NCBI GenBank assembly: GCA_032718475.1
Contig: JAUCBJ010003070.1
Span: forward strand, 124,001-188,000
Length of the DNA stretch: 64,000 bases
DNA from: Nemertoderma westbladi
Lineage: Eukaryota > Animalia > Xenacoelomorpha
Direction of reading: 5' to 3'
Positions 18,552-61,231 of this stretch are shown here, one piece after another. Each line of letters begins with the position of its first letter. The stretch's first letter is position 1. The position numbers and the translations under genes were made by a program. The notes under the pieces were generated by a model. That model made no database searches. It was not told where the DNA came from and saw only the letters and a list, made by a program, of their open reading frames with translations.

Positions 18552-18629
18552 CCGCTCCCAGAAAATGGGATTTAAGTCTATAAAATATAACAAATCACAG
18601 TTTCTAAAATATAAAAATACTCTAAACAG

Positions 18630-24761: not shown

Positions 24762-27030
24762 GTTTGTTTACACAGTTGAATGCCTACGGCTATAAATACA
24801 GCTAAAGTAAGTCTAGTAATTCAGTATCACTGTTAGCCTAATAATTAATTACCGATACTGCTGCTCAGTGTAGCGTGATATATATATAATATATTAGAAT
24901 ACCGGTATGCTTATAGTATATATATAAGTATTATTACAGACTAGATTTGTCACAGAGTACCGGTATATAATTTTAGCACAACTATATATAAATATATAAT
25001 AGGCGTATCGTGAATACCGTTATACAGCTGACACTTATAGTATATATAAGTATAATTATTACAGACTAGAATTAATTACAGAATACCGGTATGATTTCAG
25101 CCTAAATTTATAGAATAAATATAATAGGGGCCTAAGCCTATTGTAAATACCGGTATGTCAATTATTTTAAAAATAATTGAATTTCTGAATGTTAGGGGTT
25201 ACTTGGTTACTTTACTTACTCTATTACCGTTATTTGAGCAGCAGTCCAACTGATATTAAGACCTAAGTGTTGTATAACAGGCCTACTCTTTTATTAATAG
25301 ATTTAGTGGATTTATATGTACCCGTATGAGGGGTTTTGTTACAATATTGAAATAGATGTTATTATTTCTGGGAAGGAGTCACTGCACCGAAGCTGTACGC
25401 TCTCAGTGAAGTGCTACTTATTGGACACTAAAACAAATAATCCTACTTCCTAAGTTACTTATCTACGAATTACTTACGATACGGGTGAGATTAAATCTCT
25501 AATTAAACACAACAAAAAATATTACGTACGAAATTTTAGGGTAATTTTACAGGGAACTACAAACCAGTCTAACAAAGGGTTAGATTTTCTGGTTATTACA
25601 ACGGACAGGATACTACGGTATTTGAAAATAATAAGTAGTAGTAAATACACTGTGTTGTCCAGATAGGAAAATACCACCGTCTGACGACCTATAACCGTAT
25701 CGCTATAGGTACTACGTTATGTATCACGGAGTGTCCCTACCTAGAAGTTAATTACCGCGGTCTACCAGAACCAACGTGCCTATTAACCACTTTACAACAC
25801 AAATATACTGCCTACACACTAATTACCCTCGGAAAGCACTGTACACTAAACCCTAAATTAGGTACAAGTACTTATATAACAAATAATCGGTAGTTAAAAA
25901 TACTTGAACAGCTAAAAGAACCACGGTATCTGCTGGAGTGACCGGGGCACAAAATCACCAGTCTTTTCCTACGCCAAGCAGCCCGTGTAGTACCGGGGTT
26001 AATTTAACTATAACGGTATGTATAACAAGCACAATTACTGTAGGAATAAACTTGGGGACATGAATGTTGCGAATAATCGCATAAACTCTGAATAATAAAT
26101 ATTACGCTACCTGTACAGAATACTCAAACAAATATAAACCAAAACGCTGGCAGACTACCACCAAGCCTAAATAAACTACTGTATGTGCAGATTCCAAAAT
26201 GGTTAGTTAGTATGCGTTCTAACACGGTAGGACGACTTATTCTTTAAGAGGGGATTGACCTTACAGCTATGGCTGCCCCAACTTACTAACTGGCACTCTA
26301 TCGGACAAACTCTACACACGCAGCAATCTCTTCAGACCTAATAATAGCTAGACAACAATCCAGCCTACAAAATATCTGAGTAATAACTATTACGGTACCT
26401 GAACAGACCACACAAACAAACACAGGCCAAAACGCTGGCAGAATACTGTCAAGCCTAAATAAACTACAGTATGTGCAGATTCCAAAATGGTTAGTTAGTA
26501 TGCGTTCTAACACGGTAGTACGACTTATTCTTTAATAGGGGATTGACCTTACAGCTATGGCTGCCCCAACTTACTAACTGGCACTCTATCGGACAAACTC
26601 TACACACGCCGTAATCTCTCCAAACCCAACAACAATCCGACAACAGTCCGGCCTACAGTTATCTGAACAATCTGAGCAGACTTACACGTCTTCAGCTCAA
26701 TATTAACTTACTAGGAAATAAAACTGACAGAAATATACCTAAGTAAAATCCCAATAAAAACCAGGCGTCCCCGATTTAATATCGAGACCTACCGGTATAC
26801 AATAATCAAAATCGAATAATACTAATGTACTTATACTGGAAGTACCGGTTAGGACAGTTGGGCCTACGGACTTACAGAAGTGCCGGTTCTGGCAGTTGGA
26901 CCTACGGACCTAGAGCAGTACCGGTTCTGGCAGTTGGGCCTACTGACCTACAGAAGTACCGGTTCAGGTTTACCGGCCGACCGGTACTTTCAACTTTATT
27001 GCTTACTGCAATAAAGTCAATAACTGTTAT

Positions 27031-27887
27031 TATACGCGCTTTTGAAGACCTTTAGCAGTTTAACCTGCCAAAATTTATATGTCTTTTGGTTTATAAATAG
27101 ACTTTAGAAGATGACAAATATTTAATACCAATAAACACAACATTAGCAGAAGCCAGCCTAGTGCGCGTCCATTCACCCGCTGGATATACCCGGGAGACTG
27201 GATTCTGAGGGCTTAGATTATTATTGCAGTGTAAGCTTACTGTATTGTATTATTCGATTGATAGTTAATAATTAATTTCTGACTAATATTATTCACTTTC
27301 GGGAAATATTAACAGTTCCTTCAGGACGTGGCGCTCTATCTAGGTAAACAGAGATATGACTTATACTAATCACAACGGTAAGTCGGTAAGGCTTATGATT
27401 CAGGTGCTGTAGTCAGTACCGAGATAACAGTTTGATGATCTTATAATTAAAGACGCTCTAATGTCAGAAACATTCCCCGGCCGGTGTTCAAGGCGTGGGG
27501 GAAACGTCAGCACTGAATCATGGGATTCTGCTGTACAGTTTTTACACAAAGGGAAAATCTCTGATTGGTCGAACTGACGTGGACACAGCTGATAGATGTC
27601 GTCATTTGAGCTGAGCAGAACAAAGAACCAAGGCTCCGTGCAGAGGCTCCACGTGTACAGCTCAGCTATTAGCTGTCGTCTTAGTAACTACACTGTTCCA
27701 AGAGTATTTCGGCTTTTGCGTCATGGAATTGCGGATTATGTCCGCTAAAGTACACATACAGAAGAAATTACTTTTATGCCCTCTAAAACACCAGTACAGT
27801 AAGGACACGGCCCTTTTATGCCTGGTAAACCAACTACAGAGTACTTCACGGGGAAAATAACCGGCTAATTACGCAAAAGCCTTTACA
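27031..27887 (-). repeat. 5' LTR of element A (857 bp, chimeric relative to the 3' LTR)
   Basis: 27402-27887 matches 18066-18551 with two differences seen. 27031-27401 is clearly diverged from 17344-17700 and about 350 bp is missing. Confidence 0.88.
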
Positions 27888-38215: not shown

Positions 38216-38309
38216 GTGGAACAGTAACATTCGAATTTGTTCGTTGACGTTCGAATTTGTAAGACTCTGATTTAAGACCTGAGACACTCCTAAAGTCTCG
38301 AGTTTTAGG

Positions 38310-39910: not shown

Positions 39911-40000
39911 AATTATAAATGATATTGAAAAATATCTATATAGCGAGAAATATATATTAGCGATAGAACCTTCTCTGCAGTTGAACTTAAAGTTTTAAGC

Positions 40001-42286: not shown

Positions 42287-43631
42287 TGTTCGCGCTTTTG
42301 AAGACCTTTAGCAGTTTAACCTGCCAAAATTTATATGTCTTTTAGTTAATTAACACACCTTTAGCATACGACAATATTTTATGCTAATAAACAAAACATT
42401 AGCCGAAGCCAGCCCATGCGCGATCATTCACCCGATGGATACACCCGGGAGGCTGAATTCGGATGCTTAAATTTTATTATTGCAGTGTAAGGTTGCAGTG
42501 TAAACCTACTGTATTATTCGATTGATCGTTAATAATTAATTTCTGACAGATATTATTAGCTTTCGGGAAATATTAACAGTTCCTTTAGGACGTGGCGCTC
42601 TATCTATTTAAACAGAGCTAGGACTTATACTAAACGCAACGATAATGCTTATGATTAAAGTATAAGGCGCATTCTTTAGGAAATGCTTTGTTACCAATCA
42701 CAATCATGCACACGATTCTGCCGACCGTCAGTAAATTTGATCACACATAAAGAGAACAGCAATTGACTCATGTAGTGTCTGCTAAATAACATTAGATTCA
42801 ATACACACCACATTGATATAAATCGCAATTATTATGTATAGCCTGTCTCTCTAACCTGTAGTGTATCAAGAAAATTGGGAATTTTGGGTGATTTATCCGT
42901 ATTCTCCAAAGGGCAATATTTCATCAACAAATCGATACAATTAATAACTGACGGTAAATAACAGTACAAACAATATAATTAATAAGTAAAGTTCGGGAGA
43001 ATCATATGACTACCAGTGAGTTAGTTAGTTAGTGAGGTAACAGTTATACTTTCAATAATTTAAGCAGTTTTACTAGAGTTCTTCCCAAAAGCCGGTGTTA
43101 TGGCGAAAAATGGGAACACAACAACAGAATCATATGAAGAATCATATGACTACCAGTGAGTTAGTTAGTTAGTGAGGTAACAGTTATACTTTCAATAATT
43201 TAAGCAGTTTTACTAGAGTTCTTCCCAAAAGCCGGTGTTATGGCGAAAAATGGGAACACAACAACAGAATCATATGAAGAATCATATGACTACCACTCTA
43301 TACGAGGATACCAACTACCCTTATTCCCCGAAGCTCCCGTCCAACACAGAGGATGAGCATACAGATAGGAAATTCAGTTCAGTAGCTCTGGGATAGGTCG
43401 AAATCAACGCCAACTCAAATTCTATTGGCCGATACGGAACACAGGGCTGAGGCAACCTCCCTAAGCTGGTTGGCCGATCAAACAGAACCCAGATCCCTTC
43501 GCACAGCAAATCAGCCAATCAGCCGGTAGCTTGCACTATTCTAGCTAGATATCCCTTTTTAGAGTATTCAGCGACTGGGGGGAACTGGTTAGCAAAGCAA
43601 ACGAATCAGTTATCCCACAAAAGCTTTTACA
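42287..43631 (-). repeat. 3' LTR of element B
   Basis: Direct repeat of 59887-61231. Contains a 140-bp tandem duplication (~43000-43295). Confidence 0.97.
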
Positions 43632-43640
43632 CCGCTCCCA
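43632..43640 (-). promoter_or_regulatory. Polypurine tract
   Basis: Minus-strand TGGGAGCGG directly before the 3' LTR; identical in element A. Confidence 0.7.
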
Positions 43641-43709
43641 GAAAATGGGATTTAAGTCTATAAAATATACAAAATCACAGTTTCTAAAATATAAAAATAC
43701 TCTAAACAG

Positions 43710-46700
43710 TTAGTCTTTTTTGCGCGGACGGCGTTTACGCAGTTTTTTAAAGCTAGCAAGAGTCTTTTTCTCTTTGGGGCGAGCCACTTTACGAGGAGGG
43801 CTATAACTCCTGGGTGAAGGGTGCAATATGATTGCATCAGAAGGTATGGGATTACGATCGGTATATCCGCCGGTCGAAGTGCCGGGTTGGTCGACTTCCA
43901 CTTCGGTGGGGAGGGGTTTAACGACCTTTAGAGCGCGTTTTAAGACGGCTGCTCTTACGGGTCCTTTAAGAGTCGTCTGAACGAGAGCCGTGGGTGGGCC
44001 ATAGGCAGTCAGAAACTTCCTTGGTTTAATGGTTCTTTCCAACTCGCGTTCGCGGGCTCGGTACTCGTAAGGCCGTCGATATACTTCCTGTAATTCGGGG
44101 TGTGAGTTGACAAATAAGTCTCCATAGGCAGGGTCTTGACGGATAAAGTTTATTAAGTTGTAAGAATAGATGTCACTCGGATTAATGCTCCTGAGAAATT
44201 TGCGTACATATTTGGTTGAAATACATTCTCCAATGCGCTTCAGTAGTTCATAACTTGATAGGCGTGATTTCTGCTCGACGGAGGCAAACAAATAAGGATG
44301 GAACGCATAAACTCCTTCGTAAGCGCGTCCAGGGTAATAGCGATGGCGTGAATCACAATGTAAATCAGCGTTCGCTTCCCAAGCTCTGATATAACGTAGT
44401 ACAATCATTTCATCTACGCTCTCTAAATCATGATTAAAGGGACAATCAAAGCTGGCGTGTCCTTTTAATTGACAATGATGGCATTGAGTCATAAATTGGG
44501 GGCAGACAGCAAAAATGTGCAAATTATTAAGCCGACAATATGCACAATAGATTTCCATCGACGGTTGCTCGTGGAAATAGGAACAGAGATCGTTGGTGTC
44601 CATAGACGTAATATGGTCTCTCGATGCGCACAGCCGACAACGTTGTCGAGAAACATAATTGGCATGGCGATAATCATACGCAGTAAGACACTGTGGACCT
44701 TGATACCATTCCAATATGTAGTCGCTATCGCTACTCCGAGACGTGGGGGGCTGAATCTCTTCAGATTCTAAACATATGGGTTCGTCTTCCCCTTGTATAG
44801 TTGAGGTAGGCATGGCCGTCTCCTCAAGTGGACCTACCGTCTGAATTTCCACGACAGAATAACCTGTGGGGATTCGAGGTCTTTGGATAACAGAGGAGTG
44901 CAGGTTTATTATACAAATGTCTTTGAAAATAGCAAATCCAGCGCTATCTAACTTCTCCGCAGCCGAGTCTCTTAAGCTGAGCTTGGTCAAAGCGCGGTCT
45001 TTGAATTGGCTATCCACGTTGCGAAACGGGGTTAAAAATCGTCGGAAACATTCAAAGCGGATGAATTTATTATGTTCATCTAGCTTAGCGAGTTTGGTCC
45101 CAAGTATTAATGGATGGGCGCGTATAGTACGACTGCACACATCGGCTAGCCAACCGGAAAGTGCGGTGTTTTCGAAGATCGTGTAGATAGCTAAGGAGGG
45201 GCGGAGTGGAACACTCATGAAGCTATACACGGCGCCAGGTGCGGTCAACGGTCCGTCAAAGTATAATCGAGAATAATGGTCTCCGTATACTTGTTGATAG
45301 TTGATGGGATTTCCGACCTTGAAATTCCATCCGTATTCCTGAAAAGCAAGATGTCCGATGGAAGTTCGTTGCACCTTTGTAATGTTGCTAGACGCATTAG
45401 CATACATGGTGCGAAAGAAACCTCGGCCTTCGGCCCAAGGAGCTATCAGCTGAGTATCCACGAAAGGATAGGGGATATTTTCCATATTCCGAAAGTCGTT
45501 TTGGAGATCTCCGTAAACAGCTGAGCCGATTTTAATGATTCTTTCGTTGAATAACATCTCGAGAACGGGCTGGGGTAACATCGATCCATCGATACCCATG
45601 GCCGGTTTGCGTTCGGTGTCAATGACGTAACGCTGCGCGAGTTCGAATTGTCCATGTCGGAGATTCTTTTGCGTTTCGGTGAGAGTTTCAAAGGAATAAT
45701 CGATCACGTCGGAACACGCTCGCGTAAACACGTGAGTGGAACCAGCTAATCCGCGTATGTGTATCATGCGCGTAGTTCCTAATTCTCCGATTGGAACGCT
45801 ACCTTCGTTATCGTAAGTAACAACGCCATACATCTCAATGATATTAAGAGTTTCATTCCACTCTTTGGTGGCGTTCTCGAGGGTCATCCCTACTGGATGC
45901 CACAAGGTGGCGCATTGATTAGCGTCAGGGAGATCACTATACTTCATGTATCGAGTGGTATACGTCTCCACATTTCCATATCTTTGTATTTTCTCCTCCT
46001 CGAATAATACGTCTAGATTCCAATGGACTAATCGAGTTTTAATAAATCCATCGAGATTATAAGGAGGTTCTGTATCCTTCTCTATTCGAGAAACGTTATA
46101 TGGTTTTCGAAATGAGTTTACCTTTACTAACTGATCCAGATGTTTTTGCAATTGTTCGAGTTCGACAATGTCCAGAGGATTTATTAGTGGTAGAAACTTT
46201 AAATTATGCGTCGGATCTTCTGGTTTTACCATATAATATTGAGTCAGATTAACGTAATAAGGGTGGTCTTTAATTCCATAAAAAGAGTTCTGTAAAGGTC
46301 TAGCGCGTATGTTGACATCGTGTACCATACGACGGACAAGATCCGCTCGATTGTCCGGAGGTTCAACGAGTATACCGTCAACTCGAGCGGCCTCGATTGG
46401 CGGACGCTGTAACATAGGAGCGTCAGCGATAAGATTTTGCGATCTTATGCTGATATCAACCGGTTGGGGTTGTATCTTTGCAAAAAGTTTGTCTCCGAAA
46501 TGCGGAACCATCGAGGGATGACGGACGGTTTTAGAGTAGAGATCGGTTATGAGTATCTGAGCTTCGGGTTGGGCTAAAGCGGCTTCTTCTCTCTCATCCA
46601 TTTCCGTATGTTTCTCCTCTAGTTGATTTTCCTCCGCTTGTTTCTGTAAGCGTTCTTCTAGAAACTCCTGTAGAGAATACGTACGTCCAAGCTCGATGTC

Positions 46701-47963
46701 CTCTTCGAGGTTTTGGATTTCTCTATCAAACTGCGGCAAGGCTAACTCTTTCACCGATTGGACCTGCTGCTGTAATTTACGTTTCTCTAGAAAATCCTGT
46801 GTTCCCTTTCCGATTTTCTGTCGGATGGCGTCTAAAGCGTTTCTGATGACACTCTCCTCGACTTCCGTGGCAGGTTGTATCGGAGTTAATCCTGGCCGAT
46901 TGTAAGGATTAAATGGCGATGTTAGATGCCCGCGTCCCAATCCGGTTAAATAGGATGGTCGAATATCTAACGAACCTACCGCTGGAACACCACCGATTAA
47001 CTGCTCGGGTAACACCAAATCTTTGAACAGTGAGTATAACTCGGGAGGATCAGTGATACTGTTAGGATCAAGAGTTTGAGGTCTCACTGGGGAATGAGGA
47101 GGCCTGACCGAGTATTCCGGAACTCTGATCATGGGTTTATTTAGCGATCGTTTTAGACGGGCGATCGTAGGTGATACGTCGAACAGGTTTCGCTCGAAAC
47201 TCCCGTAAGTATAACGCGTAAAACTGTGTTTAGCACAACGTCTCCGCGGATGTTTATGTCTTTCCGTTTGCTGGTTAGGTCTAGGGCATGAGTCACAATA
47301 ATACCAAAGACGTACGTCCTGCAGAGGAAACGCGGGTGATCGTTCTCCAGTTTTGCAATACTCTTCCATTTGTTCAAAGCTGTCCGGGACAACAGGCAGT
47401 GGACGATCTGCGGTAAGATACATCATGGTGAAATAGAGTCGTTTGAGTTCTACCATGGGATCGTGATGTATACCTTGAGGATATCGAGTCTCTAGGTTCT
47501 GTTGACTGGCAATATTGAGATAGGTTTCTCTCAAAAATTCCAAGTAGTCGTTGAAGTTGATGCGCTTATCGGGTTCTTCAACGTTTTCTCTGTCGAGTAG
47601 GTTGCGAATAGAGTTCTCGTGTTCTATTCTCGGTTTATCATTACGATTCCGCTGGGCATGATATTTAAATAAAACCATTTCCCTTTCGGTGTCTACATCT
47701 TCCGTATCATGTAAATCGGTAGGATGGCCGGTAGTTAAGAAGTCCATATACGTACCATTACGATTCGTATAGCGAGCGGTGAATTTTCTATAGTCCAATT
47801 CACGCGTAAGTTGTTCCTGGGACATCGGCGGTTCGATATAACGACCATCGTCCTCCGTAATAGTCGGATCGGCTTCACCGCGTATCAAGCTATCCACAAA
47901 CGCTTGTAAAGGTAGAGTATATCGCTCTCTAATACCAAGGTCATCTTCTATCAATTCCGTCAT
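43710..47963 (-). CDS. Accessory protein of element B (1417 aa): DEDDy-like 3'-5' exonuclease domain, Cys/His zinc knuckles, basic NLS-like tail
   Basis: Intact ATG ORF. GVVTYDNEG (ExoI-like), LPQPVLEMLFNERIIKIGSAVYGD (ExoII-like), FVDTQ, SIGHLA...YG..FK. Knuckles CRLCASRDH, CAYCRLNNLH..VC, CHHCQLKGHASFDC. Tail KKLRKRRPRKK. No signal peptide or TM helix seen. Confidence 0.8.
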   Translation of the reverse strand: MTELIEDDLGIRERYTLPLQAFVDSLIRGEADPTITEDDGRYIEPPMSQEQLTRELDYRKFTARYTNRNGTYMDFLTTGHPTDLHDTEDVDTEREMVLFKYHAQRNRNDKPRIEHENSIRNLLDRENVEEPDKRINFNDYLEFLRETYLNIASQQNLETRYPQGIHHDPMVELKRLYFTMMYLTADRPLPVVPDSFEQMEEYCKTGERSPAFPLQDVRLWYYCDSCPRPNQQTERHKHPRRRCAKHSFTRYTYGSFERNLFDVSPTIARLKRSLNKPMIRVPEYSVRPPHSPVRPQTLDPNSITDPPELYSLFKDLVLPEQLIGGVPAVGSLDIRPSYLTGLGRGHLTSPFNPYNRPGLTPIQPATEVEESVIRNALDAIRQKIGKGTQDFLEKRKLQQQVQSVKELALPQFDREIQNLEEDIELGRTYSLQEFLEERLQKQAEENQLEEKHTEMDEREEAALAQPEAQILITDLYSKTVRHPSMVPHFGDKLFAKIQPQPVDISIRSQNLIADAPMLQRPPIEAARVDGILVEPPDNRADLVRRMVHDVNIRARPLQNSFYGIKDHPYYVNLTQYYMVKPEDPTHNLKFLPLINPLDIVELEQLQKHLDQLVKVNSFRKPYNVSRIEKDTEPPYNLDGFIKTRLVHWNLDVLFEEEKIQRYGNVETYTTRYMKYSDLPDANQCATLWHPVGMTLENATKEWNETLNIIEMYGVVTYDNEGSVPIGELGTTRMIHIRGLAGSTHVFTRACSDVIDYSFETLTETQKNLRHGQFELAQRYVIDTERKPAMGIDGSMLPQPVLEMLFNERIIKIGSAVYGDLQNDFRNMENIPYPFVDTQLIAPWAEGRGFFRTMYANASSNITKVQRTSIGHLAFQEYGWNFKVGNPINYQQVYGDHYSRLYFDGPLTAPGAVYSFMSVPLRPSLAIYTIFENTALSGWLADVCSRTIRAHPLILGTKLAKLDEHNKFIRFECFRRFLTPFRNVDSQFKDRALTKLSLRDSAAEKLDSAGFAIFKDICIINLHSSVIQRPRIPTGYSVVEIQTVGPLEETAMPTSTIQGEDEPICLESEEIQPPTSRSSDSDYILEWYQGPQCLTAYDYRHANYVSRQRCRLCASRDHITSMDTNDLCSYFHEQPSMEIYCAYCRLNNLHIFAVCPQFMTQCHHCQLKGHASFDCPFNHDLESVDEMIVLRYIRAWEANADLHCDSRHRYYPGRAYEGVYAFHPYLFASVEQKSRLSSYELLKRIGECISTKYVRKFLRSINPSDIYSYNLINFIRQDPAYGDLFVNSHPELQEVYRRPYEYRARERELERTIKPRKFLTAYGPPTALVQTTLKGPVRAAVLKRALKVVKPLPTEVEVDQPGTSTGGYTDRNPIPSDAIILHPSPRSYSPPRKVARPKEKKTLASFKKLRKRRPRKKD

Positions 47964-49585
47964 ATCTGCTATCTGAGTTTATTAATATCAGTATGAGTTA
48001 ATATTTAGGCAAGCGGGCGTCGCTGCCTACTAGTCTTTGCCCCCGGACAGTGGGTTTCTCAGCGCCGATGTACCGTCGTCGCGGTGTTTACGCCAACATG
48101 TAGCAACAGCACGACAACGATAACCGGCACAAGTCCCACCACTGTCCGTCCCAAAGGCTTGAATCCACTTGAGGTTATCTCGGTAGAGTTAGGGCTACTT
48201 TACAATTGCGATTAGCTACTGTAAACACACTTTAGTAGTAACATTCACCTATAAACGCCCAAATTCCATACAATTGGACAATTACTTACTGCATACATGC
48301 AGGCCATTTGTCCGTTAATCAGTGTCTTCCAGAATGTCACGTTATTACTATGTATCCTTGGATACTAATAGTGCGCTATGTATACTCTTATGCTACGCAA
48401 TGGGGCAAGCTTTTTATTGTTCCTTTAACTTGCTTCTAATTCTAGCGTGGGTGTTGCCATGGTGACATTATGGAAAACTAGCGGTAGAATTAGAGTAATT
48501 CTCATGCATACAGATCTGGGATGCTATTTAATAGTAATTCTTTAATTGTCAATATCCTCTTTATGCATGATTTTATAAATTTTATCGGCTATTGACTATA
48601 TGTTGGAGATTCTCGCACTCTAGTACACTCAATATGAATCTCCGCTCCCATGATCTATTAATTACTGGAATTTTGGGAATGTTATAAATTGCACAAAATG
48701 ACAATTTATGAAATTCATTTGAATATGAATTTAAATTTATTCCCGTGAATTTTATTATTTGATGTTAAATTGACACAAATTTCATTCCAGAGCATATCTG
48801 GGGACTTAGGATCCTTAATTCTATAAAATAGTCCTTCTAAGAATATCGGTAAATACTGCGATATCTTAATTGACTAGAAATTTTAAAGGATCGGGATTTT
48901 ACAGATTTTAATAAATATTAAATTAATATTTAGGATGAGCACCGATTTATTCCAGAACTTGTCTGGGGACGTTAACCACTGATTCTAGAATTTGTCTTTC
49001 AAGTATATCGGTGGGTGCTACGATATCTTAATCGACTAGAATTACAGATGGTCAAAAAGTTTAACAGATTTATTTGCGATTTACGCTACTGTTAGAGGGA
49101 CATCACGCTACTATATGTATTATTTGTTATAAGGTAGAAGAGCAATATCGCACGAAGCAATGTCAGTGTGAAGAGGCAAGTCGTTTCCAAGGTCTACCCA
49201 GAGCTTGGTTTAGCCGAGACACGAGGATCTGAACTTTGCATTCCTAATACTCTGCCTACCAATAATACTTAAATATAGTAGTGGCTTTATTGTACTTTAA
49301 TAAGTACTGACATGTCATCTTACTATAGTCTCGCATTTATAATATAATACGGACAGTAAGGAAAGAGAAAATAATTATTTCTTGCCGTCGCACTAAATAT
49401 ATTATAGGTAATTAAATACGTAATAAACACTAATATATTGCACTAATTTACTAAATATTCTAAAATAACATTTTACTAAATAAAATTAAATAAAAACGAT
49501 TATAATAACGTACATAATAACATTTACATATAAAATGTAATAAAAATAGATAAAATAATATAGACATACACCCACTCCAGACGTA

Positions 49586-50210
49586 CTACGTTGAAGAGCC
49601 CCTAGATGTTTGAGGTATTAGGGAGGTGGTCGTGGGAAGGGTTTCTTGCCTTCCATAGTTTCCGGAGAGTTCCCGGTCTCTTTCCAGCAAACATAAACGA
49701 CCAACCGGGCGATTGAGTTGTTGCGTCTCAAAGATTATGCCGGGTTTCTTGAAGTTACGTCGCATGACGACGAGTTCTACCGAGCGCACTAGACCATCCT
49801 CCGAGATGTGCGTCTCGATGATACGACCTATCTGCCACCGTCTACGTGGAAGGTCCGGATCTACAATAAGGACCATGTCTCCGGCGCTGACATTTTCCTG
49901 CTGCGCAAACCACTTAGTTCGAAGTTGTAGCGTGGGCAGATAATGTTTCTCAAAATGGTCAGCGAAACGACGGGATAGCAACTGCATAAGCTGCCAAGTT
50001 CGACGACAGTATTCATCTCCATCGGCAATCTCGGATTGTGGGAGCATGGCTACAGGTTTCTTAAGTAGGAAGTGCGCGGGTGTTAGCGCTTCCAGGGAGT
50101 CGAGACTCGATGAGACTGGCATAAGCGGTCTCTCGTTAAGATAGGCAGCGATTTCTTCCATTAACGTCCGCAGAAGTTCGTCGGTGAGATATGCACGGCA
50201 CGGCACTATA
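49586..50210 (-). CDS. Integrase C-terminal part (DUF5641-like), frameshifted from the main polyprotein
   Basis: LTDELLRTLMEEIAAYLNERPL, ALTPAHFL, YLPTLQLRTKW, GDMVLI, WQIGRI, DGLVRSV, RPVGRLCLL. Confidence 0.9.
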
Positions 50211-53200
50211 AAGCGGTCTTGACACTTCGAATTAATCTCTCCCAACTTCCTCCCCACCAAGGGGCGTCGGCGGCGTTAAAGGTCCAGCTAGACGCCGTTA
50301 TCCGTAGCTGGTCGTCCACCTGTCTTTGATTCCAGTCCTTTACGTAAGCCTGAATTTCGTTGTTGGCACCAATGAAGTTCGTTCCCTTATCGGATCTCAT
50401 CGTGTTGCTAGTTCCGAAACGAGCGATCTGTCGTCGTAAACATAAGACGAAGCTGTTAGTAGATAGATCGTTCACCATATCGAGATGGATAGCTCTACAA
50501 GTCATGCAGACAAAGATTACACACCATCTCTTGACTATAGTTCTAGCACGATACACTTCAATAGGGCCAAATAAATCCACACCAGTATTAGTAAAGGGTG
50601 GTTCATAAAAGCTTACTCGTTCCCTAGGTAATTCTGCCTCTCGCTGTGTTAAAGGCCTACTGAATGCTTTCCTACAAGGTATGCAGTTCCTAAGAACTTG
50701 ATTCAGAGCTCTACGTGGTCTATGAAAATAATAGCGAGTTCGAATTTCGCTAAGAACTCGTTCTCTACCAGCATGATACAGTTTACTGTGAACATCTACA
50801 ATCATCTTGATTTGTACTTCAAGATTACTAATGAGTATAGGGAATTTAGTATCAAAGGATAATGGTGCGTTGGTAAGTCTTCCTCCAACACGTATTAACC
50901 CATCTATCATTGTGCTAGAGAAGCGATCCCTTAAGCGCATCTGCGGATTTCTCAATAACAGAAAATACCTATCGGAATCCTCATAGCATTGCAGGAGTCT
51001 CAGTAGCTGCTTATTAGTTTCTTCATGCTCCTGGTAACTGATCTTCTCCTTTAGAAACCGGTCTGATATCTTGTACTTAGGTAGATCTTTAATAACATGA
51101 ACTTGCGCAGATGTCACTGGAGCAGGATCACTAGTGGTCTGCGTCCTGGAGTAGTGATGGTGAAAACATCTCTTTAAGTATGTGACGGCTTTACAGAGAC
51201 GATTCCAGGAACTGTAATGATGCAGTGCTCTCTGCAGCAGGGGTGAGATTCCTTGCGAGACGTCTGGTATCCCAGATTTCCAATCTCTGTCTCTAATTTC
51301 CACAACAGACTTGTTTGTGGCGAGGGATTGTGGATCCAAAGTATCGTTTTCGGCAGTATGTAATACAGATAGATCGATTGTTGGTTTAAATAACTTCGAT
51401 TTACTTGTCCGAGTTTTGGGTTTGACTTTCTCCGCTCCCTTGGCTTGTCTAATCTCAGCCGTAGTAAGGTGAGGAGGCCATTCATCCTCTTCCTTGCTCA
51501 GGAAGTCGGGTCCACCCAACCAGTCAGGAGTATCTATCAGTTCCTGTGGAGTTGCTCCTCTGGAGGCGATGTCAGCTGGGTTAATCGTACCAGGGCAATG
51601 TCTCCATTGATCTATCGTTGTGCGACTAAGAATAATGGCCACTCTGTTAGTAACAAAGACGCTGAACTGACAGACTTCATTCGTTATATATTCCAACACA
51701 AGTAAAGCGTCGGTCCAATAAACAGTTTTCTCCAGTGGATAATCGATCTGTTCTGTTACATTCCGTCCGATAGCTGTAGCGTATAAAGCTGCTTTTAACT
51801 CTGCCCGAGGAACCTTCAGCTTGTTGTTAATCAATGCCTTAGAGGTAACCAAGGCAACTTTGATTCCATCCGGAGTTTCGACTCGCAGGTATGCTACTAT
51901 ACCTATTCCCATATCGCTGGCATCTCCGAATACATGGAGTTGATAGGAATATGTAGGGAGAACATGACCAAAATATGAACGGGAAATTATAAAGTTCTCG
52001 ATGGCAGGTAGCGAGTCCTCCCATTTCATCCATTTCTTTAATAGTTCTCCCTTGAGTGGATCGTCCCACGAGTGGTTTTCAAGCCACATTTGTTGTACTA
52101 AACTCCGAGCAATCAATATAACTGGGCTAATAAATCCCAAGGGATCGAAATAAGTGCTCAGAATACTTAAACAAATCCGTTTGGTCCGAACTGGATTATC
52201 TCGCTGTTTTAGCTGAAAAAACAGGATATCTCTTTCTGTGTCCCACTTCAAGCCAAGCGTCTTGGTTTCCGGAAGATCGTCATGTATTAAGTCGAGGTCT
52301 TTTGATCCCCGGTCTTCTACAGATATTGCTTCCAGAAACTCACGGGAGTTGCTGGTGAACTTCGTCAATCGAAATCCACCTCTTTTCAAACACTCAACCG
52401 TTCCTTTCGCGACATCAATGGCTTCTTTTACTGATGGAAGGGACTTTAAATTGTCGTCCATGTATATGTCTCGTTTGATGTTATCTATCACCTCTTTGGA
52501 GAAGGCGTCCCGGTTGTCATCCGCAGTGGTACGAACCACTGAGCAGGCGTTTGAAGGGCTTGATATAATCCCAAAAGCCTGGATGGTCATCCAGTACTCT
52601 ACCGGTTTCTGGTTGAGATCTCCTTCAGGCCACCACAGGAATCTTAGGCTGTCTCTATCACGATCCAACGCCTTGACTTCTAAGAACATTCCTTCTATAT
52701 CGGAGGCGAACGCGATGGAATATTGTCTTAATCTTAAAAGTATTCCCAATAAAGATTGGAGCAAGTTGGGTCCTGGTAACAACTCGGAATTGAGGGATTG
52801 GCCCATATATAGGGCGGAGCCATCAAATACGACCCGTACTTCATGGGGTTTACCGGGTTTGGGAACGTAATGATGTGTTAGATAATAAGTTCTTTCAGTT
52901 ATTGGAGTTCCTTCCGGTACTCGCTCCGCATATCCCTTTGTGATAAATTTCTTCAACTGAGTTTGGTACATTTCCTTAGCTGAAGCATTTGCCGTAAGAC
53001 GTCGATGTAATTGATTGATTCTTTTCTCAGCCAAAGGTCTGTTATTTATAAATCTAGGTTCCCGTTTTCGAAATGGTAGTCCGATTTCATATCTACCTTG
53101 ATCTTTTAAAAAACGTGTGGTTGTTTCCTGGATTTGCTTGGCTCTTTCTTCTTCTATCGACAGGGCTTTGTCGTATGAATTGGGTTCTACTAATTCTTGG

Positions 53201-56200
53201 GTAAAGAATCGTATGGCGAGTTCGTCCCGAGTTCTAGCGTTGTAGCGCTCTACCTCGTCATTAAGTTCGTCATTATAAATCATGGATTCCGTTGGGCGAA
53301 TCAGTTGACATAGGTTCGCTTGGTTTTTCCAAGTATGATTCTCTGTAAGTAGGTCAATTGTGTTCTCTTCTTCGAAGAGTTGGTAGATGTTGTCATTATC
53401 TGAGGAGTATGGTGTTCCCTCAGTTAGTTCGTCCACTTCACTGCTTTCCACTTCCCAATCGTTTACTTGATATATTTGTTCGTGTGGCATTCTCTCTTCG
53501 AGAGTTCTACGGGAAGGGCCAGTAAAGTACCAACCTACTCTAGTTCTTACCGCATAGGTTTGCAGTGGCTGTGGTTGAGCAGGCCGTTTCTCTAATGTTT
53601 CGAGCGCCTCGTGCGCGTTTTGGCCGATGAGTATTTGCACTCCAGGATAATCTGTCTGGAATCGAGGTATCTTAAGATGTTGGATGCTCTCATCTTCGTC
53701 CCAATTATAAAGGTCTGCTTGAGTAGTAGCAAAGTTCTTTATAGCCACCATTTTTACTGACCTTATACCTTGTGTTCCTAACTTATCCTGGGGGGTGGAC
53801 AACACACCTACATAGTAATCTGCCGTTAGGGTAGATTTCCAAACCTGCATAATTCCTGACATATTCAATTTAGTCCGGAACTTGGGTTGTCCAGCAAAGA
53901 TATCTTCGGCTAGTTCTTGATCGATGAATGTTCCTGTGCTGCCGGAGTCAAGGAGGGCGTTCACTATGTAGCTTTTGTTAAGACCGTGAACTCTTACTTG
54001 AACTACAGGAAATTCTCTGATTCCTACGTTGGAAGCTGGAGCTTTCCAAGATGGTTGTTTGGTGAAAGTAGTTGGGGGAAACTCATCGTTGATGTCCTTT
54101 TCGTAAGTAAGTGCTCGATACACTGCGGTATTTATTAGATAACAGGATTCATTGGCATCGGAGAATTCGTCAGTATAGAATCCTTCCATCTCAGACTCTT
54201 GATCAGTGTCGTTTACGTCACTGAATTGGACATGTAGTTCGGGCTCACTTACCTGACTCTGTCTGTCTCGTTCGAACTCACTGTGTAACAAGATGTTATG
54301 TTTCGCGCCACACTTTGCACACTTTATGTCGGAGTAACAGGTTCGCCGTTGATGTCCTGGTCTGAGGCAATTATAGCATAACCGCTTGTCCCATACGACT
54401 GTACATCTGTCTACAAGGGATTTCTTTAGAAATTCAGCACACGCACTCAAACAGTGGGTCCCGTCGCACAGCGCACAGTTAGGTTTTATGTTACTCACTT
54501 TACCTTGGGTAACTTGATGCACTCTCGTTTTTTCTTCGGGTTTTCTTCGGTGCATTCTGTTAGGAGACTGAGGAGGGGTCTTGGCAACCTGTTCTTTCCT
54601 ATCGTTGTTTCGAGCCTTGTATTTACTTACGTCCTTTGAGGTTTTGTCAACATAGTAAGATCGGTCTGTGTCTTTCCCACTGTCCTCTTCTTGGGAAGCT
54701 TGGCTTTCGCCGTCGTCAGTGTAACACACCGGTGTTACTCTTCTCCTAGAAGTGGGTTTCTCACTTACCTTATTTTCCGATGTTTTCTCTCTGGACTGCT
54801 TGATGAGTTGTAGTTTTACTTCACCATCTAAGAAAGACATGAGATCAGCCATGGTAGGACTTCGTCGTTGTTGTTCATTCATGTACATCACTTTCTTGTC
54901 CCAGCGTGTACATACTCCACCCTTTGGTAAAGTAGAGACTACGGCTCCAATAACCATGGAACTCTGATATTCATGCGACTTACCTAACCAGTCCAGTTGT
55001 CTACAGATCTCTTGAATCTCATCGGAAAACTCTATAATCCCGCTACTAAGGAAGTGTCGGGGGGCTACTAATTTTGCATACAAATACTTAGCTATGTTAT
55101 CCTTGTTACCATACCTGATGTTTAATGTATCCCAAACTTGTCTTAATCCTTCTGGATGTCCAATAAACTTTAACGCCATTAACTTGGGAGGTCCTTCCAA
55201 GCACTTGATGAGGAATCTAAGTTTCTCTCCGTTAGATAGTACAGAGTTCTGTATGCTATCTTTGTAATATTCGTTGAAAGGTAACCATTTCATCTCATCT
55301 CCATTGAATTTGACGATCTCTCCCACTTTGACCGCTTGGCGGGCTTCTGTTCTAGCCATCTGACGCGTAAAGCTTTCTTGGGCCATCGTGTTATTTAATA
55401 TCGAATTATCGGTATATAAATTTCTCGGATTATTATCAGGTCTATAGGGAATATTATTAGCAACAGGCGTATAATCACCCTTAATAGGGTTTGCTATAGG
55501 AGTTTCTACTTCACTAGCAGTATAGATGCGTGTAGGCTCCACACCTTGCGCATGTAGTACTTCAGACCTAACAGGTTGACACAATGTTACAGGGGGTATT
55601 GGTATGCCCTTTTGGATATTGACTAATTTGTCGCGTTCTAGTGCGATACTTTGCTGCACTTCTTGCAACTCTGCTCTACCTTCCCTCACTGTTCCCTTAA
55701 GTTGGTGGACAGTCTCCTGCATCTGTCCTAGCAGGAGATTCATCCCCCGCCGTCCCTCTTCTACCCACTCAACCGCCGAAGCGGGAGTCGCCAACATAGT
55801 AGCGGGCTGACGCGGGACGACGGGAGACAAATCTTTGATTTCTCTCTCTGCTATCCGGACAGGGATATTCTCTTGGACTGTTCCACCGGGTACAGGCAGT
55901 GTAGTACTATGTAAAGGGAATTTAGAGTTAAGCTCTGGAAGTATAGGGGTCTCTAACACAGAAGTGACTTTGGGAACGACAGGCCTAATTATTTCAGGCT
56001 CATCAACTATTGTAGGGAGTCTTTTGACCTTAATAATTTGGGCTGTAGGTTCTATACTACTCAAGTCTGTGCTAGCTAGCTGTCTTCTAACAGCTGGGGG
56101 CAAATCAGGCAATTTGCGACGGTAAGATGTTTTTCTACGCCTACTTAGATGAGATCTATTTCCTCCGCCTTCAGGATCGGTGGTCTCGCCTTCCTCCGAG

Positions 56201-57627
56201 GATGTGTATCCCTGGCGCTTGGGAGTAGATTTTCTCATCATCTGCATTTGATTAGCAGTAAACTGTTTATTTAGACTGTCTTGCGTCTCTTGCAGATTTT
56301 CCAACTCCAGTTGGATAGTCTCCTCAGAAGCTCTCCGTTCTGCTTCTGCCACTGCTGCTTTTCTTTCTGCTTCTGCTTCTGCCGCCTTTCTTTCGGCTTC
56401 TGCTTCTGCCGCTTTTCTTTCGGCTTCTGCTTCGGCCGCCGCTGCTGCTGCCACCTTTCTTTTCTCTATCCGTTCTTTCTTTACTTGTTCTTCTCGGACT
56501 CTAGTGAGGCGGAGTTTTTCATCAAATTCAGCTTGGTTTGCAGCTAACATTTCGGCATCGATTGAGTCCAACACAAGCTTGGTTCCTTCACTATTAGGGG
56601 AAAGTCCAGACAGCCGTCTCCTCAACTCTTCGTCTCCTAGGAATCGCTGATAGTCGGACAGATAAATGTCGATAGCGTCTCTAGTTCGCGGTTTCTCGGC
56701 GGTCTCTTCGCTTTCCACTTGAGAAAGGGTGACATCAGTTTGTTCTTCATAGGTTGATCTTTCAGCCAGCTGGGATTTCCACTGGGCCGTTTCCTGTACT
56801 TTGAGACCTACCCGATGTAACCAAGTTTTGACAGCAACCTGCAGCGACGTATCCTGTCTTCTTTTGGAAGTTTCTTCAAAGGCTGAGAGGATTAGTCGAA
56901 TGCGTAGGGTTCTTTCGCGTACTTGGTATAGCAGCTCTTCCTGCTCTTGAGGTCCTTGGGGTTGTCGAAACAGTTGTTCTTCCAATCGCTCCAAGGAGCC
57001 GAAGAATCCCTGCACATATCCTGCTGCCGACCTCTTCCAAACAGCTGGATCCATTGTATCTTTAGCCACTCCCATCCTGTGTATATCTTCCCAAGTAGCC
57101 TCGGACAGATCCAACGGGAGTCCGAGTCCGGGAAAGTTCCATTTTGACTCGACAATAGACATCAATTCTTCCCTGGCGTATCCCGCATAATTATCTTGGG
57201 TCGCTCGCTTATTTCTCGCCCAGTCGGCTTGATGTTCCTCCACCGCAATGAATATAGTAGTTAGCACTGCAGCAGGAAGGGTGAGAAGGGGGTCCGAGTA
57301 GACTGTAGCAGCCATCTGCACTCCGCGTTCGGGGGTCAGCTCTACAGTATCCGAACTACTGGAGCTATCGGGTCACTGGGAAGTAGGTTCTTGACCAAGA
57401 TGTTGCTGCGATAGGACAACTGCCTCTTGGTTCCGTTTGACCTGTGCTCGAGTGCCTATGATGGACCTATGGTGGACTAGCCTAGGGTCTGATACTACTG
57501 GAGGGATGACCTTTCTTGCAGTAGGAGGTGAGCTGAACTCCTTTCTTAATCGCTCCACACTCCTATCTGTGTCACAGATGGTTGTATCGATCAGACTGTC
57601 TGACAGGTTTTGCTGAGTGTCAGACAT
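50206..57627 (-). CDS. BEL/Pao Gag-Pol polyprotein (start MSDT at 57627; one in-frame TGA at 57373-57375; frameshift near 50210)
   Basis: Gag core and three knuckles. PR LLDSGS. RT RVVFDGS, DIEGMF, YMDD. RNase H LHVFGDAS, PRAELKAA, WTDA. IN H-H-C-C, GVDLFGP, SDKGTNF, WERLIRSVK. The 84-aa ORF 57373-57627 is in frame with 50206-57321. Confidence 0.93.
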
Positions 57628-59886
57628 GTTTATCTATACAGTTGAATGTCTACTACTATAGTTTCAGTTAAAGCAAGTCTAGTAATTCAGTATGACCGCA
57701 AGCCTAGCGATTTATTACCGATACCGTTACTCGGTGTAATGTGATATATATACAATATATTAGAATACCGGTATGCTTATAGTATATATATAAGTATTAT
57801 TACAGACTAGCTTTGTCACACAGTACCGGTATATAATTTTAGCACAAATATATATAAATATATAATAGGCCTATCGTGAATACCGGTATACAGCTTACAC
57901 TTATAGTATATATAAGTATAATTATGAACTAGAATTAATTACAGAATACCGGTATGATTTCAGCTCAAATTTATAGAAATAAATATAATAAGCCTATGGT
58001 AAATACCGGTATGTCAATTATTTTTAGAATAATTGAATTTCTGAATATTTTAGGGTTACTTGGTTACTTTAACTTACTTTATTACCGTTATTTAAGCAGT
58101 AGTCCAACTGATATTGAGACCTAGTTGTTGTATGGCAGGCCTACTATTTATAAATCGTTTGAGTTGATTTATAATATATATATACCCGTTTAAAATGGGT
58201 TTTGTCTATATTTGAAATAAATGTTATTATTCCTGGGGTTCACTACACAGAAGCTGTGCGCTCTCAGTGAAGTGCTATTTATGGGACACTAAAACAGATA
58301 ATTCTAATTTACCTAAGTTACTTAATACTACAAATTACTTACGATACGGGTGAGATTAATTTCTCTAATTAAAATACAACAAAAATATTACGTACGAAAT
58401 TTTTTAGGGTAATTTTACAGGAAGTCTACAAACCAGCCTAACAAAGGGTTAGATTTCTGGTTATTACAACGGACAGGGTACTACGGTATTTGAAATAATA
58501 AGTAGCAGTAAATATATTGCACTGTCCAGATAGGAAAATACCACCGCCTGACGACCTATAACCGTATCGCTATAGGTACTACGTTATGTATCACGGAGTG
58601 TTCCTACCCAGAAGTTAATAGAGCTAACGAATGTGCCTATCAACCACTTTACAACACAAATATACTGCCTACACACTAATTACTTCGGAAAGCACTGTAC
58701 ACTAAACCCTAAATTAGGTACAAGTACCGGTACAACAAATAATCAGTAGTTAAATATACTTGAACAGTTAAAAGAACCACGGCATCTGCTGGAGTGACCA
58801 GAGCACAAAGTCACCAGTCTTGTCCTACGCCAAGCAGCCCGTGTAGTACCGGGGTTAATTTAACTATAACGGTATGTATAACAAGCACAATTACTGTAGG
58901 AATAAACTTGGGGACATGAATGTTGCGAATAATCGCATAAACTCTGAATAATAAATATTACGCTACCCGTACAGAATACTCAAACAAAATACAAACCAAA
59001 CGCTGGCAGACTACCACCAAGCCTAAATAAACTACCGTACGTGTAGATTCTGAAATGGTTAGTTAGTATGCGTTCTAACACGGTAGTACGACTTATTCTT
59101 TAAGAGGGGATTGACCTTACAGCATATGGCTGCCCCAACTTACTAACGGCACTTTATCAGACAAACTCCACACACACAGCAATCTCTTCAGACCTAATAA
59201 TAGCTAGACAACAATCCAGCCTACAAAATATCTGAGTAATAACTATTACGGTACCTGAACAGACCACACAAACAAACACAGGCTAAAACGCTGGCAGACT
59301 ACGATCAAGCCTAAATAAACTACAGTATATGCAGATTCTGAAATAGTTAGTTAGTATGCGTTCTAACACGGTAGTACGACTTATTCTTTAAGAGGGGATT
59401 GACCTTACAGCATATGGCTGCCCCAACTTACTAACGGCACTTTATCAGACAAACTCTACACACGCCGTAATCTCTCCAAACCCAACAACAGTCAGACAGC
59501 AGCTCAGCCTACAATTATCTGAACAATCTGAGCAGACTTACACGTCTTCAGCTCAATATTAACTTACTAGGAAATAAAACCGACAGAAATAAGTAAAATC
59601 TCAATAAAAACCAGGGCTGCAGTCCCTGATTAAATACTAAGACCTACCGGTATACAATAATCAAATTCGAATAATACTAATGTACTTATACAGCAGTACC
59701 GGTTAGGACAGTTGGGCCTACAGACCTACAGAAGTACCGGTTCCGGCAGTTGGACCTACGGACCTACAGCAGTACCGGTTCTGGCAGTTGGGCCTACTGA
59801 CCTACAGAAGTACCGTTTCAGGTTTACCGGTCACTACGGTATTTTGCAACCTTATTGCTTACTGCAATAAGATCTATAACTGTTAC
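57628..59886 (-). other. ~2.26-kb non-coding 5' leader with ~290-bp and ~40-bp tandem duplications
   Basis: Duplications at ~58995-59520 and 59690-59830. Conserved in element A (24762-27030). Confidence 0.8.
59875..59886 (-). promoter_or_regulatory. Non-canonical primer-binding position (GTAACAGTTATA), complementary to LTR sites at 60637-60648 and 60777-60788
   Basis: No TGG after the 5' LTR. Perfect 12-bp inverted match inside the LTR. Confidence 0.6.
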
Positions 59887-61231
59887 TGTTCGCGCTTTTG
59901 AAGACCTTTAGCAGTTTAACCTGCCAAAATTTATATGTCTTTTAGTTAATTAACACACCTTTAGCATACGACAATATTTTATGCTAATAAACAAAACATT
60001 AGCCGAAGCCAGCCCATGCGCGATCATTCACCCGATGGATACACCCGGGAGGCTGAATTCGGATGCTTAAATTTTATTATTGCAGTGTAAGGTTGCAGTG
60101 TAAACCTACTGTATTATTCGATTGATCGTTAATAATTAATTTCTGACAGATATTATTAGCTTTCGGGAAATATTAACAGTTCCTTTAGGACGTGGCGCTC
60201 TATCTATTTAAACAGAGCTAGGACTTATACTAAACGCAACGATAATGCTTATGATTAAAGTATAAGGCGCATTCTTTAGGAAATGCTTTGTTACCAATCA
60301 CAATCATGCACACGATTCTGCCGACCGTCAGTAAATTTGATCACACATAAAGAGAACAGCAATTGACTCATGTAGTGTCTGCTAAATAACATTAGATTCA
60401 ATACACACCACATTGATATAAATCGCAATTGTTATGTATAGCCTGTCTCTCTAACCTGTAGTGTATCAAGAAAATTGGGAATTTTGGGTGATTTATCCGT
60501 ATTCTCCAAAGGGCAATATTTCATCAACAAATCGATACAATTAGTAACTGACGGTAAATAACAGTACAAACAATATAATTAATAAGTAAAGTTCGGGAGA
60601 ATCATATGACTACCAGTGAGTTAGTTAGTTAGTGAGGTAACAGTTATACTTTCAATAATTTAAGCAGTTTTACTAGAGTTCTTCCCAAAAGCCGGTGTTA
60701 TGGCGAAAAATGGGAACACAACAACAGAATCATATGAAGAATCATATGACTACCAGTGAGTTAGTTAGTTAGTGAGGTAACAGTTATACTTTCAATAATT
60801 TAAGCAGTTTTACTAGAGTTCTTCCCAAAAGCCGGTGTTATGGCGAAAAATGGGAACACAACAACAGAATCATATGAAGAATCATATGACTACCACTCTA
60901 TACGAGGATACCAACTACCCTTATTCCCCGAAGCTCCTGTCCAACACAGAGGATGAGCATACAGATAGGAAATTCAGTTCAGTAGCTCTGGGATAGGTCG
61001 AAATCAACGCCAACTCAAATTCTATTGGCCGATACGGAACACAGGGCTGAGGCAACCTCCCTAAGCTGGTTGGCCGATCGAACAGAACCCAGATCCCTTC
61101 GCACAGCAAATCAGCCAATCAGCCGGTAGCTTGCACTATTCTAGCTAGATATCCCTTTTTAGAGTATTCAGCGACTGGGGGGAACTGGTTAGCAAAGCAA
61201 ACGAATCAGTTATCCCACAAAAGCTTTTACA
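59887..61231 (-). repeat. 5' LTR of element B
   Basis: Direct repeat of 42287-43631. Confidence 0.97.

Follow-up and report, generated by a model that had tools for sequence, protein, structure and literature searches.

Exonuclease-like cargo in retrotransposons has been described in rotifers, where the long terminal repeat (LTR) elements Juno and Vesta and the Terminons encode DEDDy proteins with a DEED set of acidic residues in a third open reading frame (ORF3). A function for these proteins has only been proposed (PMC5408684), and the account is repeated in two reviews (PMC5718144, PMC6338049). DEDDy ORF3 cargo as such is therefore already known from rotifer LTR elements. Here we describe a BEL/Pao LTR retrotransposon in a 64,000-nucleotide stretch of Nemertoderma westbladi DNA (assembly GCA_032718475.1, contig JAUCBJ010003070.1, positions 124,001–188,000 of the forward strand; ‘the window’, numbered from its first letter). 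Its ORF3 is an accessory gene, under selection and not of envelope type, in a BEL/Pao family of many copies, and the encoded protein contains a predicted RNase D-like nuclease. A second, deleted element of the same family lies in the same window.

Like the rotifer proteins, ORF3 follows pol as a separate reading frame, has no membrane segment, resembles RNase D and keeps the predicted catalytic residues. The host element differs in being BEL/Pao, and the acidic set is D-E-D-E here but DEED in rotifers (PMC5408684). Compared by description only, the rotifer ORFs are without coiled-coil or membrane domains and have a Cys-His-Cys motif in two families only (PMC5408684), whereas the present ORF3 spans 1,417 amino acids (aa) and combines three knuckles with a coiled-coil-like part and a basic tail. 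The original prediction, made from the letters of this DNA, had named such cargo in some rotifer and nematode retroelements. The rotifer precedent is borne out by PMC5408684; the nematode one is not, as the word ‘nematode’ does not occur in the main text of that paper and the literature search found no such report.

The trypanosome enzyme RND (PMC7797062) is an architectural analogue, in which an RNase D exonuclease is followed by Cys-Cys-His-Cys (CCHC) knuckles in place of an HRDC domain, and no HRDC domain is detected here (hhalign probability at most 0.3%). RND is a cellular, mitochondrial protein of ~375 aa with four knuckles past a 28-aa linker (PMC7797062), whereas ORF3 belongs to a mobile element and has three knuckles past ~160 aa; PDB searches gave no direct match between the two. 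With the PF01612 proteins WRN, EXD1, EXD2, Mut-7 and Egalitarian, ORF3 shares motif order and spacing, and the Atlas neighbours of its two homologues (P0001 and P0002, below) are PF01612 clusters. The PF01612 cut-off is, however, not reached, and ORF3 could be placed in no particular subfamily. Extra genes also occur in BEL/Pao elements with an envelope (env)-like ORF3, such as the F-like gene of Roo and a Chuviridae-like glycoprotein in mosquitoes (PMC13524379), but those encode membrane fusogens, whereas the present ORF3 has no membrane segment and has a predicted enzyme fold.

No report of a DEDDy ORF3 in BEL/Pao was found in the literature search, which did not reach Repbase, Dfam, GyDB or subscription papers, any of which may hold precedents; the word ‘exonuclease’ is absent from PMC5348765, PMC8556966 and PMC13524379. 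What appears to be new is an RNase D-like cargo in BEL/Pao, the combination of a predicted D-E-D-E nuclease with a triple knuckle in a very large protein, and its presence in an apparently self-priming element. Ever since the rotifer report, the question has stood of why retroelements repeatedly capture RNase D-like nucleases. It can be tested in this family, which offers an intact gene, strong selection, very many copies and a well-delimited module of nuclease and knuckles whose architectural analogue has been solved.

ORF3 and its predicted nuclease domain

ORF3 and its parts are located as follows.

43710..47963, minus strand: ORF3, open frame on the same strand as gag-pol, without a membrane segment
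47226..47297, minus strand: N-terminal Cys/His cluster, aa 223–246, absent from both homologues (P0001, P0002)
46554..46856, minus strand: coiled-coil-like stretch, charged and proline-poor, aa ~370–470 (pattern only)
45129..45866, minus strand: predicted DEDDy (RNase D-like) 3′–5′ exonuclease domain, aa ~700–945
45810–45812 (D718), 45804–45806 (E720), 45507–45509 (D819), 45183–45185 (Y927) and 45171–45173 (E931), minus strand: predicted catalytic residues
44442..44639, minus strand: three Cys/His zinc knuckles, aa 1109–1174, common to P0001 and P0002
43713..43796, minus strand: basic tail resembling a nuclear localisation signal, also found in the second element (83% identity across the final 53 aa)

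The frame begins 1,622 bases past the integrase tail and ends 78 bases ahead of the 3′ LTR, in line with the 4.25-kb same-strand ORF originally noted between pol and the 3′ LTR. The 1.6-kb spacer and its acceptor-like end suggest that ORF3 is probably expressed from a separate, spliced message. An envelope role, which the original prediction had already discounted, is rejected because the features of a signal peptide or membrane anchor are missing: in a simple scan, rather than a dedicated predictor, the highest 19-residue Kyte–Doolittle mean is 1.37, and the N-terminus is charged, not hydrophobic. The three knuckles expected from the original prediction are present, with canonical CX2CX4HX4C spacing in the third only, and the tail it called NLS-like is indeed basic (25% lysine plus arginine over aa 1290–1417). 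The N-terminal cluster and the coiled coil can be recognized as sequence patterns, and only as such. About four-fifths of the protein lies outside the nuclease domain.

The fold assignment rests on sequence profiles because both structure predictions failed. The exonuclease stretch by itself matches NCBIfam RNase D (E = 0.0019). Against a reference profile built from 96 RNase D domains, ORF3 scores 12.1 bits, above all of 1,000 shuffles (best shuffle, 3.7); P0001 scores 6.8 bits, and P0002 scores 1.4 bits, inside the shuffle range. When an alignment of the three family members (ORF3, P0001 and P0002) is compared with the 96 domains, hhalign returns a probability of 96.2% (E = 2.6e-9) and places D718-x-E720 on ExoI, D819 on ExoII and Y927-x3-E931 on ExoIII. 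This reproduces the WRN/EXD/RNase D-type assignment first proposed, including its divergent ExoIII, and the motifs quoted with that proposal all occur where it put them. The reversed alignment reaches 0.3%, 100 column shuffles at most 3.9%, and 8 of 10 ORF3 windows, those without the ExoII region, less than 1%; P0001 and P0002 without ORF3 give 95%. D718, E720 and D819 are invariant in all seven alignment rows. At ~25% overall identity, the acidic and tyrosine positions read D-E-D-Y-E in ORF3 and P0001 and D-E-D-Y-D in P0002. The region of aa ~700–945 very probably adopts a DEDDy fold of the RNase D type, and the exonuclease is likely to be catalytically active, as judged from these alignments.

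Several observations weigh against this assignment. Aligned alone, ORF3 reaches only 69% in hhalign, and searches of Pfam and PDB sequences with ORF3 gave no significant match, nor did PHROGs. ExoIII, the least certain of the three motifs, ends in E rather than D in ORF3 and P0001 (P0002 has the canonical D). One MAFFT alignment set an acid-free upstream segment at this motif, whereas hhalign and BLAST align Y927-x3-E931. Both AlphaFold models, of ORF3 alone and with seven alignment rows, are of low confidence (predicted local distance difference test, pLDDT, 29 and 30); Foldseek and VIA-align returned nothing on them, and searches on such models carry no meaning. Of the two fold checks suggested with the original prediction, profile comparison was thus positive and structure search uninformative.

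Within the family, the best Pfam match to PF01612 has E = 0.2 (P0001), with no curated cut-off reached, and among solved structures the family profile comes closest to Egalitarian (E = 0.68) and EXD2 (E = 0.96), neither match being significant. Exonuclease domains of DNA polymerase I give a weak alignment with the family (hhalign 47.6%, only three template sequences), and short RNase D-like proteins that stand alone give no match (1.6%, four templates). An HRDC domain after the nuclease was considered and rejected, as hhalign against 86 bacterial HRDC sequences gave 0.08–0.26% for ORF3, P0001 and P0002. A tblastn search of phages found no match.

The two homologues are metagenome proteins and were the only matches of a phmmer search with ORF3 aa 480–1300 over 1.84 billion protein representatives. 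The nuclease region accounts for the match to P0001 (648 aa, E = 1e-6) and the knuckles for that to P0002 (575 aa, E = 4e-4), and each homologue also matches the other region of ORF3 and the other homologue in both regions. In all three proteins a nuclease-like domain is followed, after a linker that varies, by three Cys/His knuckles, so the nuclease-plus-knuckle module is an old conserved unit, to which ORF3 adds ~700 N-terminal residues and the basic tail. The stretch past the knuckles is similar by eye among the family and not significant on its own. Atlas groups the P0002 domain with PF01612 (0.94; 28 of 30 hits). For P0001 the first Atlas hit is a trypanosome RND-type cluster (0.86, a lead only) and the second an EXD1-like cluster (0.77). 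That P0001 and P0002 sit in mobile elements is a guess.

Other searches for relatives gave little. Word-index protein searches found no match, a weak negative given that the method missed even P0001 and P0002. Viral contig scans with the family, P0002 and P0001 and a first genome-contig scan were also without a match. The metagenome contig scan with the family alignment yielded a single locus, a bacterial RNase D gene, and the family profile gave five weak matches in 301 bacterial genomes, four of them RNase D and one spurious. P0002–P0006 are five near-identical proteins of one cluster, found on at least eight contigs of 3–12 kb, as a multi-copy element would give.

ORF3 is under purifying selection, with the strongest figures in the nuclease. 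Variants among copies were tallied, not fitted to a codon model, from the best-supported rows: the best 40 of 157 for the nuclease and the best 40 of 1,839 for ORF3 plus the pol tail, 25 of which fall in ORF3. In the nuclease set, 34 of 40 variants are synonymous (ratio of nonsynonymous to synonymous polymorphism, pN/pS, 0.05–0.07; p < 1e-13), the catalytic codons are untouched and there is no indel. Across the whole of ORF3, 14 of the 25 are synonymous (pN/pS 0.22–0.31). Among the best 12 of 120 indels, ORF3 and pol contain 1 each and the other 10 lie in non-coding DNA. A nonsynonymous-to-synonymous ratio near 1, the outcome against which the original prediction was to be checked, is not seen. 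Relative to the second element, third codon positions differ by 35% and first and second positions by 18% and 16% in the N-terminal half of ORF3; the corresponding values in gag are 20%, 8% and 7%. The synonymous and third-position biases mark ORF3 as a long-standing working gene of the family, and a chance ORF is rejected.

ORF3 is present in other family members, on contigs of other copies and, in decayed form, in the second element. Six public runs carry the window stretch or part of it. Contigs from four of these cover 30 of 30 bins of ORF3 plus the pol tail, and 46,347 contigs of one run align, from which the family comprises very many diverged copies, depth not being copy number. Two points count against the reading of ORF3 favoured below: the variants are drawn from the best-supported rows only, and the sole RNA-labelled run, whose label is a guess, covers non-coding parts as well.

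Candidate roles of ORF3

We tentatively favour, with somewhat less than even confidence, a role in which ORF3 trims or destroys the host small RNAs that silence the family, namely PIWI-interacting RNAs (piRNAs), small interfering RNAs (siRNAs) and their precursors. The nuclease would be a two-metal 3′–5′ exoribonuclease of the RNase D type, and the three knuckles would hold single-stranded RNA tails. Trimming or degradation of piRNA, siRNA and precursors would let the family escape silencing, and the 700-aa N-terminal half and the basic tail may act as a scaffold or in localisation. An RNA substrate is suggested by the knuckles and by trypanosome RND, whose RNase D domain and CCHC knuckles trim the uridine tails of guide RNAs and whose overexpression depletes guide RNAs (PMC7797062). 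Catalytic activity is suggested by the conservation of the acidic residues in all three distinct family members.

The least secure part of this reading is the class of target. Host small RNAs are favoured because the cargo recurs in elements of unlike replication and because small RNAs are also what its nearest cellular relatives work on. DEDDy cargo occurs both in LTR elements and in Penelope-like Terminons, which replicate differently (PMC5408684), and such recurrence would fit a general counter-defence better than a single replication step. Two points tell against small RNAs as targets: the rotifer DEDDy ORF3s have no clear link to copy number and their transcripts are still covered by small RNAs (PMC5408684), and the element itself contains a competing candidate substrate, its self-primer. 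Should ORF3 indeed attack host small RNAs, an animal retrotransposon would possess an anti-silencing factor that works as an enzyme.

The competing substrate is defined by two features.

59875..59886, minus strand: non-tRNA primer-binding site, directly after the 5′ LTR
60637..60648, minus strand: 12-mer complementary to the primer site (candidate self-primer), with a second copy at 60777–60788 and 3′ LTR copies at 43037–43048 and 43177–43188

The element appears to prime itself, with a Tf1-like signature and no transfer RNA (tRNA) primer site. Directly past the 5′ LTR, 12 bases are complementary without a mismatch to the LTR 12-mer, which a 140-bp tandem duplication of the LTR doubles, and the match ends at the LTR edge, as the geometry of a primer would require. 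A 12-base match arose in 4 of 20,000 Markov-shuffled LTRs and at 1 of 2,541 leader offsets, and the helix has a pairing probability of 0.88–1.0 in a 793-nucleotide fold (z = −2.64). No TGG-type tRNA primer site lies within 60 bases of the 5′ LTR in either element, and no tRNA genes were found in the window. In the second element, 9 bases (27424–27432 and 18088–18096, minus strand) are complementary to that element's own primer site and lie 67 bases upstream of a common conserved block, compared with 70 for the 12-mer. The terminal pair is changed on both sides, a compensatory change (null, 48 of 5,000). The U3 regions of the two elements do not align, yet each contains a segment that complements the element's own primer site. 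In both elements a TATAA coincides with the complement motif or immediately precedes it, so transcription may start downstream of the motif.

Tf1, Tj1 and their relatives are described as self-priming, and the same has been predicted of the plant elements Tcn1 and TAR (PMC4600332, PMC6317226). As in Tf1, Tj1, the Tf1/sushi group, Tcn1 and TAR, the primer site here is complementary to the element's own LTR rather than to a tRNA; those elements are, however, Ty3/gypsy or Ty1/copia, whereas this one is BEL/Pao. The R-U5 loop between primer and site is ~750 bases here, and the likeness to the Tf1 group is one of sequence geometry only. The literature search, to which Repbase, Dfam, GyDB and subscription papers were again closed, found no paper on self-priming in BEL/Pao, and the text of PMC3601003 available to us adds nothing further on BEL/Pao priming.

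ORF3 could then act in primer maturation, a role that we regard as unlikely, though it is the first alternative to weigh. The element would prime itself, and ORF3 would trim the primer strand 3′ to 5′ and halt on reaching the 12-bp duplex, so that the 3′ end would coincide with the LTR edge. The lack of a TGG-type site in either element, the exact complement ending at the LTR edge, the high helix probability and the second element's own complement with its doubly changed terminal pair all fit this scheme. If transcription starts downstream, the primer would have to be excised from the 3′ LTR copy, where a 3′–5′ nuclease would be useful. Against it, the Tf1 primer is reported to be made with the RNase H of its own reverse transcriptase (title of Levin 1996, cited in PMC4600332), pairing gave uridine tails no protection from trypanosome RND (PMC7797062), and entry of the ORF3 protein into particles has to be assumed. 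The helix is also disfavoured in the damaged 5′ LTR of the second element (probability 0.01–0.04).

A bolder form of the idea is rather improbable: that this BEL/Pao lineage gave up tRNA priming and supplies the primer-making enzyme itself, a knuckle-guided exonuclease that would chew element RNA down to the 12-bp duplex and so create the 3′ end for reverse transcription. If true, this priming route would be unlike tRNA priming and unlike the Tf1 RNase H cut, and an ORF3 that makes the primer would represent a new start mode for reverse transcription. Whether ORF3 acts on small RNAs or on the primer, nuclease cargo would reach a further LTR superfamily, and a BEL/Pao ORF3 need not be env.

Quite improbably, ORF3 may instead be an RNA-binding adaptor whose exonuclease fold is weak or dead, of the kind seen in EXD1, Egalitarian or Maelstrom, and that, with its knuckles and coiled coil, carries or shields element RNA or decoys piRNA factors. 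Such a role is consistent with the E for D in ExoIII, with Egalitarian and EXD2 as the best, non-significant solved-structure matches, with the four-fifths of the protein outside the nuclease, and with EXD1 and Maelstrom, inactive DEDD derivatives that still bind RNA (PMC5408684). It is harder to reconcile with the four acidic positions and the tyrosine kept in ORF3, P0001 and P0002 at such low identity, and with catalytic residues that are unvaried among the best 40 of 157 nuclease variants.

We consider it decidedly improbable that ORF3 serves general RNA processing, that is, turnover or 3′-end processing of the element's long RNAs or RNase H fragments apart from priming and silencing. Trimming of structured RNA ends is known from RNase D and Rrp6 (PMC7797062), a processing role was suggested for the rotifer DEDDy ORF3s (PMC5408684), and long parts of the element are non-coding; a specific substrate, however, cannot be discerned in it. 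For ordinary BEL/Pao elements the host exosome already handles such processing, which counts against this role.

Proofreading by ORF3 on behalf of the reverse transcriptase, permitting a 19-kb genome by analogy with nidovirus ExoN as the original prediction had offered, is very improbable. DEDDy is a proofreading fold, the weak DNA polymerase I alignment (47.6%, only three templates) points the same way, and the element is long. The analogy is weak, because Burro (>30 kb) and Ogre (16–25 kb) are longer or of similar size and are described without an exonuclease in the excerpted text of PMC6431247, so that the need for proofreading in a long element is rejected. Automated BEL/Pao maxima are likewise 16–23 kb (PMC3118150). 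Moreover, ~7 kb of the element is LTRs and non-coding DNA and 4.25 kb is ORF3 itself, the ORF3 enzyme is separate from the reverse transcriptase, and its knuckles are of RNA type. Finally, a spurious nuclease match or neutral passenger ORF would fit the missing Pfam and PDB matches, the pLDDT of 29–30 and the decayed second copy, but is hardly credible given the controlled profile evidence, the independent Atlas assignment of a homologue and the strong synonymous bias.

Structure of the element and flanking DNA

The remaining features are listed below.

42287..61231, minus strand: BEL/Pao LTR retrotransposon, 18,945 bp (self-blast, end inspection, Pfam)
59887..61231, minus strand: 5′ LTR, 1,345 bp, with the 140-bp tandem duplication and an AATAAA-type signal at 60078
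57316..59886, minus strand: leader, 2.57 kb, with internal direct repeats
50206..57315, minus strand: gag-pol ORF, 2,369 aa, with three gag Cys/His motifs, protease, reverse transcriptase (YMDD), RNase H and the N-terminal part of integrase
49586..50275, minus strand: C-terminal part of integrase with DUF5641, in a different frame
47964..49585, minus strand: AT-rich spacer, 1.62 kb, with a possible splice acceptor at its end, just upstream of the ORF3 ATG
43632..43639, minus strand: purine-rich tract of only 8 bases preceding the 3′ LTR, with the same sequence in the second element
42287..43631, minus strand: 3′ LTR (self-blast, end inspection)
17344..27887, minus strand: second, deleted element of the same family, with target duplication CTGCT

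The 18,945-bp element is a recent insertion. Self-comparison of the window shows 4 mismatches between its two LTRs of 1,345 bp, which have TG...CA ends, and a 5-bp target duplication, ACTAT, is found at 42282–42286 and 61232–61236. Its class is BEL/Pao: Pfam identifies Peptidase_A17 (E = 4e-36), DUF1759 (E = 7e-12), DUF5641 (E = 5e-21) and Integrase_H2C2, and in a motif scan the pol order is protease, reverse transcriptase, RNase H and integrase, as in BEL/Pao (Belpaoviridae). BEL/Pao gag has three Cys/His motifs, the last ending in His; these are found here at aa 947, 980 and 999.

The original description of a giant BEL/Pao element holds with two qualifications. Pfam and the LTRs support the class, but this copy is not fully intact: its pol frame is broken within integrase, near 50206–50275, as the integrase tail and DUF5641 sit in another frame. 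Contigs of other copies differ from this young copy at 50206–50275. ‘Giant’ is apt only in relative terms. BEL/Pao lengths are usually 4.2–10 kb, with a median of 7.4 kb (PMC3118150), and at 18.9 kb the element is 2.6 times that median, large yet inside the range of automated surveys, given their 16–23 kb maxima. A viral contig scan with its reverse transcriptase found no relative.

The 8-base purine tract sits within a short inverted repeat (43632–43650) that is alike in both elements. Ahead of the capsid region, a charged helical stretch in the N-terminal part of gag (56300–56460) carries short peptide units in tandem, resembling AAEAEAERK, and their number is not the same in the second element.

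The second element retains an open gag-protease ORF of 1,067 aa (24767–21564, minus strand), though most of pol is deleted, and its decayed ORF3 is without aa ~464–1364. Its U3 region, 486 bp long and 99.6% alike between its two LTRs, does not align with that of the first element, whereas R-U5 is 74% alike between the elements. Its 5′ LTR is short by ~350 bp. Within the second element the two R-U5 parts are only 82% alike, a pattern that suggests recombination between subfamilies.

No host genes were recognised among the 11 ORFs scanned in the window. A Penelope-like element with reverse transcriptase and GIY-YIG (39944–41764, plus strand) lies ~520 bases from the 3′ LTR. The flanking region also holds two inverted copies, ~23 kb apart, of a repeat with internal tandem units (36976–39076 and 61391–62881). 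Fragments of non-LTR retrotransposon reverse transcriptase genes are found at 8190–10778, 29175–30356 and 32922–33617, and a minisatellite with a 12-bp unit (5150–6900) has a strong GC skew and opens long frames on both strands.

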